Source: a virus (lineage: Duplodnaviria; Heunggongvirae; Uroviricota; Caudoviricetes). Taken from it: a stretch of 20,241 nt of DNA. The notes under the pieces were generated by a model that searched no databases, was not told the DNA's origin, and saw only the letters and a list, made by a program, of their open reading frames with translations. How positions within the stretch are numbered: the stretch's first letter is position 1; each line of letters opens with the position of its first letter. The DNA is taken from positions 1-20,241 of the IMG/VR virus record IMGVR_UViG_2802429219_000017. One strand, given 5' to 3'. Of this stretch, positions 10,131 to 13,211 are shown piece after piece. A program made the translations under genes and the position numbers.

Positions 10131-10544
10131 ATGAAAATCAAACCGTTTATCAATGCTGGAAATCTTACTCCCGGCGAACTACGAGACTGGATCCTGAAAC
10201 TTGCAAAAAATGCAGAAATTGCGGGTTGGGGTACAGAAACTTCGGTTCGGAAGCTTCAGAGCGCAGAACTTAGCCTGCGCTCAGTTATGGACGATTTATC
10301 CCCAAGAATTAATTTTCTGGGGTCAGAGCAAATAATTCGTTCGGAAGGTCACTCCAGCGAAGTTGCGGAAGTTCTGAATACTTTGAGGATAACTTTTGCT
10401 GCCGTTCGCGATATTCAACGAACCATTCTCTCATTGATTTCTCAGCTTCAAGAAATTGATAGTCGCATTCCTGATGGGGGTCATAGAGAGCGTCTTCCAG
10501 AATGTGAAGAGCAAGGACAGGAGAAACAGATAAGGGATCAGTAA
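10131..10544 (+). CDS. Hypothetical protein (137 aa) directly after ydaT; overlaps a convergent ORF
   Basis: Open frame starting 19 nt after the ydaT stop, with protein-like helical composition and a weak SD. Its 3' 236 nt overlap the minus-strand ORF 10309-10764. Confidence 0.4.
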   Translation: MKIKPFINAGNLTPGELRDWILKLAKNAEIAGWGTETSVRKLQSAELSLRSVMDDLSPRINFLGSEQIIRSEGHSSEVAEVLNTLRITFAAVRDIQRTILSLISQLQEIDSRIPDGGHRERLPECEEQGQEKQIRDQ

Positions 10545-10764
10545 TACGTTTTTCACTTGCCTGGTATAGCAATCTCGCCAGCGAATCATAGTTACTGGGA
10601 CTCAGGAGAGAATCTCGTGAGTGATTTGTAAGAAGTAGATGGAAGCGGGTGAGAACTATAGCCCTGCATGTTACCAGGTTAACCATGTCGTGGTCGTGCT
10701 GGTTAATTTTGTACACAGTGCGCATGTGATTTTTAATTTTTTGGCAAACAGCCATTAAAGACAT
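10309..10764 (-). CDS. Hypothetical protein (151 aa) with its own -10 and strong SD, divergent from the replication gene
   Basis: AAGGAGGT SD 5 nt before the ATG at 10764. Perfect minus-strand -10 TATAAT at 10804-10809, ~33 nt upstream of the ATG. No recognisable family. Confidence 0.5.
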   Translation of the reverse strand: MSLMAVCQKIKNHMRTVYKINQHDHDMVNLVTCRAIVLTRFHLLLTNHSRDSLLSPSNYDSLARLLYQASEKRITDPLSVSPVLALHILEDALYDPHQECDYQFLEAEKSMREWFVEYRERQQKLSSKYSELPQLRWSDLPNELFALTPEN

Positions 10765-10843
10765 GTCGAACCTCCTTTGGTTCTGTTGATTGGGGAATCA
10801 CAGATTATATCCGGAGGAAGGTTCGACACCAGATGAGGCAATT

Positions 10844-11968
10844 ATGGTTAAGGCTAAAAACATGCCAAATCCCATGCCAAAAACTAAGGCAAACAATGAG
10901 CCTTATCGCAAGGTAAAAATAACGATATGGGATGATCCCAAATTTAGGGCGTTATCTCCTCTGCCTCCAAGTGGACAGAGTTTGTTTATTTATCTGCTGA
11001 CCAGTCCATTTACCGGGATTATTCCTGGGTTGTTTAAAGCCGGGCGGGCAGCAATGGCTGAAGAGTTGGGGTGGGATATCGAAGCCTTTGACTTAGCCTT
11101 AGGCGAAGCCATGAATCTTGGCATGGTGAAAGCAGATATCAAAGCCAGAGTTTTTTGGCTCCCGAATGCTGCGAAACACAATCCGCCAAACTCGATAAAT
11201 GTCATTAAATCCTGGGCAAAGGCATTCGCTTTAATTCCTGACTGCCCTCTCAAATGGGAGGCCAGGGAATCGCTGAGAGCCGCGTCCTACGGGGTTTCTG
11301 AGGCTTTGGGGATGGCATTCGATAAGGCAATCCCTTTGCCTGAGGATAAGCCTAAGGATAAGGCTAACGCTTTGTCATGCGGTATCCAGATAACAGATAA
11401 CAGATATATAAACCCCACACATAACGCGCGCGTGCGCGAGAGTGCTCCGGCCAGTGAGGCAAATGGCGTGCCGTTGCAGACAGCGGAACCTGATTACCTG
11501 GAAGGCCTGAGCGAACCCATCGGGAAATTTCCGATGACCGATGGCTGGCATCCGTCGCCGGATTTTCGACGACGGGCTGCGCTGTGGGGCGTGGCTCTTC
11601 CTGAGCCGGAATTTACACCAGCTGAACTTGCCGCCTTCCGGGACTACTGGGCAGCGGAGGGGAAAGTATTTACGCAGATTCAGTGGGAGCAGAAATTCGC
11701 CCGTCACGTAAATCACGTCAGGGCGCAGGTTAAACCAGTCAGCAAGGGGGTGAGCCATGCAGCCGCACCAGGTGGCACCGCATCACGGGCAGTTCAGGAA
11801 ATTCGGGCAGCACGTGAGCAGTGGGAACGTGAAAACGGATTTATCAGCGACGGAAACGGCGTGGAAGCTGTGGGAACTCATGGGGGAGGTTTATTCGAAC
11901 CGCTGGACCCAGAAGAACGGGGCCGCACCTTCGAAGCTCTGGATTGCACAGATTGGCGCGATGACTGA
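10844..11968 (+). CDS. Putative replication initiation protein (O-like slot; YdaU/DnaT-like C-terminal motif)
   Basis: Large ORF in the lambda O position. C-terminal ...[31 protein letters not shown]... resembles phage replication/primosomal proteins. GAGG SD favours the ATG at 10844; the track ORF starts with TTG at 10790. The last ~70 codons overlap the next gene. Confidence 0.6.
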
Positions 11969-12422
11969 GCAGCAAATCCGTCAGGTCTGCCGCCAGTGCA
12001 TGGACCGCTGCCGGGCGGGTGAAACATGGCCTCCGGACCTGGCTGAGTTTGTGGCGCTGATTTCGGAGAGTGGGGCAAATCCATTTGGTCTGACGGTGGA
12101 TGCTGTGATGGAGGAGTACCGCCGCTGGCGCAATGAGTCCTGGCGATACGACGGAAGTGATAAGTACCCGTGGTCTCAGCCCGTGCTGTATCACATTTGC
12201 CTCGAGATGCGTTCAAAGGGGATTGAGCGCCAGATGACCGAAGGGGAGTTAAAACGGCTTGCAGAACGGCAACTGACGAAATGGGCAAAGCATGTTGGTA
12301 ATGGCCTCAGTGTTCCGCCCGTCCGGCGGCAACTGGCAGCACCAAAACGCCCGTCGGGGCCAACACCAATTGAGTTGCTGAAACAGGAATATGAACGCCG
12401 GAAAGCGGCTGGTTTTGTTTGA
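11757..12422 (+). CDS. Lambda P-like replication protein (helicase loader)
   Basis: ...[36 protein letters not shown]...YPW... aligns by eye with the central and C-terminal parts of lambda P. AAGGGGGTGAG SD precedes the ATG at 11757; alternative starts at 11880 and 11961. Confidence 0.65.
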
Positions 12423-12455
12423 GTTTAGAAGTATTTTTACCGGGAGGAAATTTTA

Positions 12456-13211
12456 ATGGAGACCGTTTTTGACGCACTGAAAGCGATGGGAAAGGCCACG
12501 TCGGCAGAACTGGCTGCGCGACTTGATATCAGTCGAGAAGAAGTGCTGAACGAACTATGGGAACTGAAAAAGGCTGGTTTCGTTGATAAAAGCGCGTACA
12601 CCTGGCGTGTGGCTGATAACAACGTTCAGCAGGAACAGCCAGCGCCGGCAGAACTGCCGGAAGAAACCACCACGGCGACAGTAGCGAAAATCTCAGAGTG
12701 CGATTTAACCGCGACGATTGAACAACGCGGACCACAAACGGCGGATGAGCTGGCTACATTGTTTGGTACCACATCACGCAAAGTGGCTTCAACGCTGGCA
12801 ATGGCAATCAGCAAAGGTCGTCTGATTCGCGTAAATCAGGGCGGTAAATTTCGTTACTGCATACCGGGCGATAATTTACCAGCAGAGCCGAAAGCAGCAT
12901 CGGTAGCGGAAACTGATGGTAAGGCCTTTCCTCAGCCCGCAGGTGTTGCGTTACCAGTACAGGAGGCTGCAACACAGGAAGAAATTAAAACAGAAACTGT
13001 GGCGGACATTGTGCAGTCGCTGCCATCGTTTACTGCAACGCGATCTGATGATTTGATTTTGCCATCGCTGCATTTGGCAAACCGCGAACTGCGTCGGGCG
13101 AAAAATCATGTCCGGAAGTGGGAGCGTGTCTGCGCCGCGCTGCGGGAGCTGAATAAATATCGCGATATTGTCGCCCAGCTTTGCCAGGAGGAAACCAGTG
13201 AGCAACATTAA
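12456..13211 (+). CDS. Hypothetical protein with two winged-helix-like domains (251 aa)
   Basis: GGGAGGAAA SD. N-terminal and central segments each look like a winged helix-turn-helix; the C-terminus is basic and helical. Confidence 0.6.

Follow-up and report, generated by a model that had tools for sequence, protein, structure and literature searches.

Evidence for an anciently conserved, out-of-phase overlap between the initiator and helicase-loader genes of a Rac/DicA-type lambdoid prophage

Layout of the two replication genes

The early region of a Rac/DicA-type lambdoid prophage was investigated in a stretch of 20,241 nucleotides (nt), positions 1 to 20,241 of the virus record IMGVR_UViG_2802429219_000017 (Caudoviricetes). 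This whole stretch is called the window below. Two replication genes follow each other there on the plus strand, an initiator or replisome-organizer gene and a gene for a helicase loader of the lambda P type, designated P in the following. The end of the first gene and the start of the second share 212 nt, in which P is read +1 relative to the initiator (Table 1). An earlier inspection of the letters alone (the sequence-only reading) had noticed the two frames overlapping by about 210 nt, which was confirmed, and had offered three explanations: a genuine overlap, a frameshift in the initiator gene, or a later true start of P. With the comparisons described below it is highly probable that the overlap is genuine, that it is anciently conserved and that it links two core replication genes of this prophage type out of phase.

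An open initiator frame extends from 10790 to the TGA at 11966-11968. Its likely start is the ATG at 10844, as indicated by the annotation of the phage record pPE4 and by the homologue P0129 of 374 amino acids (aa) with 98% identity. This start is also annotated inconsistently: the Prokaryotic Genome Annotation Pipeline (PGAP) places it at internal ATGs which vary with the genome, giving for example 305 aa in E. coli M8 (L005:2055-2969) versus 374 aa in the window. The N-terminal part of the protein is origin-specific; a DnaT DNA-binding domain and a C-terminal tail follow. The DnaT domain was detected with Pfam PF17948 at an E-value of 5.9e-18 (64.8 bits, cut-off 25). No match to lambda O was obtained in the Pfam scan of the 392-aa open reading frame (ORF), which gave PF17948 only (E <= 0.01). 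Thus, the term 'O-like' of the sequence-only reading is appropriate as a functional label, but not as a statement of homology. Homologues of the initiator are named 'DnaT-like ssDNA-binding domain-containing protein' or 'phage replisome organizer'. The tail, described before as being of low complexity, is rich in G/E/A/R/D and for the most part predicted to be disordered.

For P, the strong Shine-Dalgarno (SD) site and the ATG at 11757 were found as described. The site AAGGGGGTGA stands at a spacing of 5 nt and ranks among the top 2% of the positions in the initiator gene by its pairing energy. Its last three bases form a TGA (11751-11753), which closes the P frame upstream. The ATGs at 11880 (Met42) and 11961 (Met69), the latter overlapping the initiator stop in ATGACTGA, are likewise present. 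The loader was matched by Pfam PF06992 along residues 56-188 (61 bits, cut-off 26, E 1.5e-16); the match starts 13 codons upstream of the commonly annotated start at 11961. The profile also matches the lambda P chains 8v9t and 8v9s of the PDB. As a member of this family, P is putatively a protein binding and loading the host DnaB.

Table 1 Features of the overlapping replication genes and their surroundings in the window
Feature	Position	Strand	Basis or remark
Initiator / replisome-organizer gene ('O-like'), 374 aa	10844..11968	+	ORF; pPE4 annotation; P0129
DnaT DNA-binding domain of the initiator	11528..11728	+	Pfam PF17948, residues 247-313 of the 392-aa ORF
Putative Shine-Dalgarno site for P, AAGGGGGTGA, inside the initiator coding sequence	11744..11753	+	dG -11.8 kcal/mol
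Helicase-loader gene (lambda-P-like), 221 aa	11757..12422	+	ORF, Pfam, conserved ATG, AlphaFold2/Foldseek
Dual-coding segment, 212 nt	11757..11968	+	Initiator residues 305-374 (frame 0), P residues 1-70 (frame +1)
Predicted initiator tail helix, residues 315-330	11786..11833	+	AlphaFold2; opposite the disordered domain I of P
Predicted first three helices of P domain II, residues 26-67	11832..11957	+	AlphaFold2; opposite the disordered acidic C-terminus of the initiator
ATGACTGA, initiator stop overlapping P Met69	11961..11968	+	PGAP/GenBank start of P (153 aa)
Flanking genes: YdaS-like, YdaT-like, two replication genes, DUF1627 gene, ead-like gene			Pfam and pPE4/RefSeq annotation

Conservation of both frames and the start of the loader

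The region was found in 1,301 of 5,426 complete E. coli genomes, with near-full coverage in 1,252. Initiator frame and stop were identical in the annotation of the records sampled among these 1,252 genomes (88-98% identity), and both frames were intact in all 46 distinct region variants among the fetched loci. A scan of viral contigs yielded near-identical E. coli prophages only (97-99%) and was used for population diversity. A further 14 Enterobacterales loci of 12 genera, among them Escherichia albertii, Citrobacter, Enterobacter, Klebsiella, Pluralibacter, Phytobacter, Kluyvera and Salmonella, have two open frames, with an ATG at the head of that of P. Their overlap measures 212 or 215 nt, and their P identities are 65-93%. 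The same arrangement was detected in three more distant relatives (overlaps of 203-224 nt) and in six Vibrio-phage loci of several clades (191-212 nt). The Vibrio phages were matched in a translated search with the 221-aa P along residues 1-132, with about 30% identity and across two annotated genes. In Vibrio phage D62 the overlap is also 212 nt long, and the initiator stop lies at the same aligned P codons. When E. coli and D62 are compared over the same DNA, both translations are similar (P frame E 4e-13, initiator frame E 4e-6); for the initiator tail, significance in pairwise BLAST is confined to the D62 type, since Vibrio phage 1.184.A gave an E-value of 0.19. Across the lineages an upstream stop shuts the P frame just before the ATG. 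Homologues in more than 20 lineages share the overlap with both full-length proteins conserved, which supports the first of the three explanations.

The chance that the initiator frame stays open was simulated by synonymous recoding, given the P protein and the local codon usage. Over the whole overlap it was open in 0-9% of the recodings per lineage; in the natural sequences it is open in all 13 lineages, and in three further lineages as well. For the second half only, chance-open frames made up 0.6-50% of the recodings per lineage (0.6-14% in five Vibrio lineages), and again the frame is open in every lineage.

A tail of low complexity and mostly predicted disorder would also fit a read-through artefact, caused by a frameshift or a sequencing error in this copy, and frame switches derived from indels do occur in the same stretch of some records. 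The conservation of the frame across variants and lineages rules this out. Frame and stop are shared with pPE4, a relative with 98.3% identity, with the sampled RefSeq records and with the 46 variants and all diverged lineages named above, and the helix in the tail is under purifying selection (see below). The second explanation of the sequence-only reading thus has a probability close to nil.

The exceptions seen were single-base indels only. In Leclercia adecarboxylata NCTC13032 (L025:2600-2690) the P frame switches to the initiator frame at a run of five G (11882-11886 in the window), and both genes are closed early; either the locus is a true pseudogene, or the homopolymer was sequenced wrongly. 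The G run, with GAGG following it, makes up a strong SD-like motif within both genes. The second case is an ORF of 385 aa from the ENA (P0115). It starts in the initiator frame (QWEQKFARH...), changes to the P frame by a single-base deletion inside the overlap and continues into the gene downstream. It has the look of an assembly with many indels rather than of a natural fusion.

A +1 shift anywhere in the overlap would join the two proteins, and the G run mentioned above is the site of the switch in the Leclercia homologue. Programmed frameshifting from the initiator into the P frame, yielding an initiator-loader fusion instead of two proteins, has therefore to be considered, but is extremely unlikely. 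Independent initiation is indicated by the conserved ATG, the SD site and the stop upstream, and the fused ORFs of the databases stem from single-base indels. No slippery heptamer was found in the overlap of the window, and none is conserved across the lineages. Furthermore, the RNA fold around the start of P was no more stable than that of shuffled sequence (z = 0.94), and no Rfam family was detected in 10500-12700. The unremarkable fold also gives no evidence of a sequestration of the SD site.

Regarding the start of P, the SD site before 11757 was observed in 12 of 12 Enterobacterales lineages with pairing energies of -7.1 to -11.8 kcal/mol; in the Vibrio phages it is weaker (-3.5 to -9.3 kcal/mol). 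Before 11880, 11961 and 12000 the values are about -3 to -4 kcal/mol (-4.2 for 11880 and -3.1 for 11961), equal to the background mean of -3.3. In an alignment of 33 homologues the residues W39, W50, K53, N54, G55, P58 and W62 are invariant, all of them encoded in the overlap. Judged from this conservation, independent initiation of P at 11757 is highly probable.

The third explanation was a later start of P. A start at the ATG 11961, coupled to the initiator stop at ATGACTGA and giving a product of 153 aa, would leave the upstream P frame untranslated. This start is annotated in pPE4, Rac-SA53 and RefSeq E. coli genomes, stop/start overlaps of the ATGA type are normal in lambda (4 nt), phiV10 and HK639, and Met69 together with ATGA[CG]TGA is retained in the close Enterobacterales loci. 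However, the position is without an SD site, the Pfam match to the P domain is already under way 13 codons before it, and codons 33-69, which precede it, are strongly constrained (see below) and contain the seven invariant residues. The 153-aa product would be without three of the five helices of the compact domain matching lambda P domain II. In addition, many homologues have Leu in place of Met69, and in D62 this site is not a start codon. As the main start, 11961 is very unlikely. A minor short isoform of P, produced by termination and reinitiation at ATGACTGA in addition to the 221-aa form, is possible.

A start at the ATG 11880 would give a protein of about 180 aa and reduce the true overlap to 89 nt. 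It agrees with many gene calls of 177-181 aa in the databases, Met42 is nearly invariant, and some matches in the representative library begin at query residue 42. Against this start stand the missing SD site and the AW-LW segment with the invariant W39 upstream of it, where the P frame is conserved while the initiator frame varies. Vibrio phages D62 and K249 have no Met at position 42, and this residue lies within a helix (26-46) predicted by AlphaFold2 (AF2). In the majority of the distant homologues, 15-40 residues of the protein precede the domain match. Hence, we regard this start as improbable, and initiation at 11757 is kept as the preferred reading.

Selection and predicted structures in the shared stretch

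The ratio of nonsynonymous to synonymous substitutions (dN/dS) was estimated pairwise for 12 Enterobacterales sequences according to Nei and Gojobori. In the first half of the overlap (P codons 2-32) the initiator frame showed a value of 0.44, with 0.17 in the region coding for the initiator only, and the P frame a value of 0.91 versus 1.38 for the non-coding control. For P codons 33-69 the value was 0.09 versus 0.07 in the non-overlapping part of P. The non-coding frame of the initiator's phase reached 1.4-2.6. Each frame is clearly constrained in one half and weakly distinguishable from non-coding sequence in the other. The overlap is partitioned, the first half being dominated by the initiator and the second by P.

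The predicted structures were examined for both proteins. The AF2 model of the 221-aa P has a predicted local distance difference test score (pLDDT) of 74. Residues 1-27 are disordered, followed by a compact domain with the helices 26-46, 48-54, 60-67, 71-86 and 95-105, the first three with a pLDDT of about 80; the helical regions overall are 26-105, 114-181 and 204-217. The top three Foldseek matches are the lambda P chains of 9oa1 (probability 1.0, 196-216 aligned columns, E 2e-5). The TM-scores to these chains are only 0.44-0.50, with differing orientations of the domains. Lambda P consists of domain I (residues 1-29, disordered in solution), a compact domain II (about 30-119) and domains III and IV (PMC12661323). 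According to the model, the 221-aa P has the same architecture of a disordered N-terminus, a compact domain II and further helical domains. The annotated P of 153 aa is without domain I and three of the five domain II helices.

For the initiator a pLDDT of 56 was obtained overall, with a confident DnaT domain (84-91). In the model of its tail, a single helix (315-330) lies between a disordered linker and a disordered end (334-374), with a pLDDT below 50 outside the helix. The motif of this helix is conserved in the initiators of the Vibrio phages. The initiator helix ends at 11833, and the first helix of P begins at 11832. In the models, stretches with ordered structure in one protein coincide on the DNA with disordered stretches in the other.

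Diversity at wobble positions was determined for 64 distinct E. coli sequences. In the overlap it was 0.028 for the P frame and 0.021 for the initiator frame, compared with 0.147-0.151 in the distal single-coding parts.

Several results weigh against a dual-coding overlap with both proteins functional over its full length. The initiator frame has a dN/dS of 2.03 in the second half, close to the non-coding control of 2.64. The diversity trough reaches 60-90 nt past the overlap on both sides (wobble diversity 0.050-0.059); hence, dual coding is not its sole cause. The P frame was open by chance in 8-51% of the recodings given the initiator protein, so that its openness alone is weak evidence. 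The first 30 or so residues of P are poorly conserved, as the dN/dS of this half indicates, and are short or absent in the homologues P0123 and P0045. The P proteins of HK639 and phiV10 are collinear with the P of the window from about residue 26, but their profile alignment is of low confidence in the N-terminal part, and with residues 1-70 of P no match to phiV10 P was obtained by BLASTP. Homology of the N-terminus to the canonical P thus rests on the collinear profile alignment and the fold, not on pairwise sequence similarity. Finally, the basis for independent initiation at 11757 is comparative throughout.

Two lines of evidence were given less weight for these reasons. The diversity trough as a proof of dual coding is weakened by its extension outside the overlap. 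The conservation of the motifs EERG and LD in the distal tail was rejected as a proof of function, because these residues are dictated mechanically by the invariant codons for KNG and LWI (W-I) in P. Similarly, an alternation of R and W at one tail position tracks a synonymous change of Asn codons (AAC/AAT) in P. With the motifs set by P codons and a dN/dS near the control, a function of the last 40 or so initiator residues at the amino-acid level is unproven. In the second half it is chiefly the open frame and the position of the stop that are preserved for the initiator.

These observations fit a variant in which the overlap is real, but the distal part of about 40 residues has no function as a protein and the frame is held open for a translational reason. 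Ribosome traffic over the start region of P, or termination at a fixed point for coupling, was suggested as such a reason. The predicted disorder of this part and the stop position common to the E. coli phages and Vibrio phage D62 agree with it, as do the dN/dS near the control and the R/W alternation. On the other hand, no mechanism was demonstrated, the tail is acidic in all lineages (partly as a result of the P codons), and with overlaps of 191-224 nt in other lineages the termination point is not strictly fixed. We consider this variant rather unlikely, although less so than the other alternatives. The overlap as such, with initiation of P at 11757, is common to it and to the reading preferred here.

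Modularity, related systems and annotation

The match of other E. coli phages to the window starts only at about 11384-11406, inside the initiator gene. A search with the 78-aa initiator tail returned near-identical E. coli fragments only and no architectures; the full-length search was used instead. It revealed the half consisting of DnaT domain and tail joined to varied N-terminal domains, such as DUF1376, T5orf172 with MUG113 and DUF1376, HTH_36 and others. Among all initiators with the tail, at least five types of N-terminal domain occur, HTH_36/DnaD_N and DUF6291 being further examples. Some Enterobacterales and the Vibrio phages keep the tail although even the DnaT domain is replaced. 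The loaders of the Vibrio phages are without a Pfam match, and what they have in common with P is confined to the N-terminal 100-130 residues. In the representative library the family of the N-terminal P domain comprises 118 clusters at E <= 1e-3, and the match usually starts 15-40 residues into the protein. The comparison of these sequences shows tail and loader as an apparently co-inherited unit in mosaic recombination, with the N-terminal part of the initiator being exchanged.

Two further observations were made inside the initiator genes. An enterobacterial initiator (L112:1561-2721) and a Vibrio-phage initiator with DUF6291 (L107:1032-1880) have a common motif before the tail, DSFWRSNILCPSKLREKW and KDSFWCSNVLSPDKLRKQF, respectively, which suggests another exchangeable middle domain upstream of the overlap. 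The initiator gene of the window contains three direct repeats of 18 nt of the type GATAAGGCAATCCCTTTG, starting at 11216, 11321 and 11357, tandem 12-mers GCCTGAGGATAA/GCCTAAGGATAA at 11338-11361 and the AT-rich ATAACAGATAACAGATATATAAACC at 11388-11414, just before the mosaic junction. By analogy to the lambda origin, which lies within O, the repeats in 11216-11414 may form an origin of iterons and an unwinding element.

In the lambda O-P module the initiator gene also precedes the loader gene, and the loader of the window is a PF06992 homologue with a fold like that of lambda P in the DnaB-P complex 9oa1. In contrast, O and P of lambda overlap by 4 nt, and the initiator of the window, having the DnaT domain only, is not a homologue of lambda O. 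Sequence similarity of its P to lambda P is detectable from residue 86 on only, whereas the N-terminal 85 residues or so resemble the loaders of Vibrio phages. The phages phiV10, HK639 and phi80 (gp15/gp14-type) are more alike in that an initiator with DnaT domain is followed by a loader of the P family. However, the pairs of phiV10 and HK639 have annotated overlaps of about 4 nt, and their initiators end soon after DnaT, without the helix and the acidic tail.

Long out-of-phase overlaps are well known from phages, for example Rz/Rz1 of lambda and D/E and A/B/K of phiX174. In the known pairs one strand is read in different frames, synonymous variation is depressed and order lies opposite disorder. 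The case described here differs in that the end of the upstream gene joins the start of the downstream gene, neither being embedded, and in that the two products are parts of one machine, for which mutual binding is expected. Moreover, the arrangement is retained when the remainder of the upstream gene is exchanged.

For Vibrionaceae, loaders of the VdhL type were described, and their phage relatives adjoin lambda-O-like or DnaD-like genes (PNAS 2024, PMC11087808). These relatives are about 30% identical to some PF06992 proteins, undetected by Pfam, and possess a variable disordered N-terminus which loading requires; in VdhL1, removal of the variable N-terminus abolishes loading (PMC11087808). 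The Vibrio-phage loaders matched here fit this description and, as we infer from it, would be of the VdhL type. They share the N-terminal 100-130 residues with the P of the window, but their C-terminal halves are unlike its lambda-P-type half. The word 'overlap' is absent from the text of the Vibrio loader study (PMC11087808), and full-text literature searches found no paper describing this initiator/loader overlap.

Taken together, the following sequence of events is proposed. The initiator would be translated from 10844 to the TGA at 11968. The loader would begin independently at the ATG 11757, from the SD site within the initiator coding sequence, and continue to 12422 in the +1 frame. The shared 212 nt would encode, on the one hand, the initiator tail with a short linker, one helix and about 40 disordered acidic residues and, on the other hand, the disordered domain I of the loader and the first three helices of its domain II. 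Constraint would be divided accordingly between the frames, with the initiator helix over the disordered leader of the loader and the loader helices over the disordered end of the initiator. Since tail and loader share DNA, they would be inherited as one unit when modules recombine, and the origin-binding N-terminal part could be swapped freely. The overlap may also couple the synthesis of both proteins.

For lambda P, free copies of domain I were proposed to bind the O-origin complex, and the C-terminal domain of O is not visible in the cryo-electron microscopy maps (PMC12661323). The initiator tail and domain I of P are among the parts encoded by the shared stretch of the window. In lambda, the C-terminal domain of O recruits P. 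By analogy to this recruitment and to the proposed contact of P domain I with O, the contact surfaces of the two proteins are probably encoded in the shared stretch. A more far-reaching model can be put forward tentatively. In this model the 212 nt encode both sides of the interface, with the tail helix and acidic end of the initiator on one side and the N-terminal lasso and first domain II helices of the loader on the other. They would form a genetic lock, a portable adaptor cassette common to two loader types and at least five initiator families, from phages of Vibrionaceae to those of Enterobacteriaceae. If so, the contact surfaces would be inherited and evolve jointly, and the initiator half binding the origin and the loader half binding DnaB would be swapped freely around them. 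Both the cassette and this exchange are possible, but we would not yet count them as likely. The cassette might even include the domesticated VdhL/OG4911 pairs found on Vibrio chromosomes.

The standard annotation hides the overlap. GenBank phage records and RefSeq/PGAP start P at ATGACTGA (153 aa) or later (141 aa), and the same gene is found in the protein database with 221-223, 177-181, 153 and 140 aa. Gene callers which keep the long P drop the initiator gene entirely. The ambiguity is systematic, because gene finders penalise long overlaps.

A second, convergent pair of ORFs was observed upstream, at 10131-10544 (plus strand, 137 aa, no Pfam match) and 10309-10764 (minus strand, 151 aa), with an overlap of 236 nt. 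Both are annotated in pPE4, only the plus-strand ORF by PGAP. The record pPE4 itself (L001; PP818812.1, 'Actinobacillus phage vB_Apl-pPE4') has its 98.3% identity to the window over the replication module of 1,633 nt. It also shares the flanking E. coli-type genes kil, dicA and ydaT. The stated Actinobacillus host appears doubtful.

The annotated start removes 68 residues from the loader. With the region present in about 1,250 complete E. coli genomes, cloning or modelling from this start would yield a truncated loader. Beyond the annotation, the locus would be an unusually clean natural case of two partner proteins sharing sequence space, with order opposite disorder. It gives a concrete hypothesis for the contact site of initiator and loader. 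It also indicates how mosaic phage genomes may keep interacting parts together, across bacterial orders and through exchanges of the initiator.

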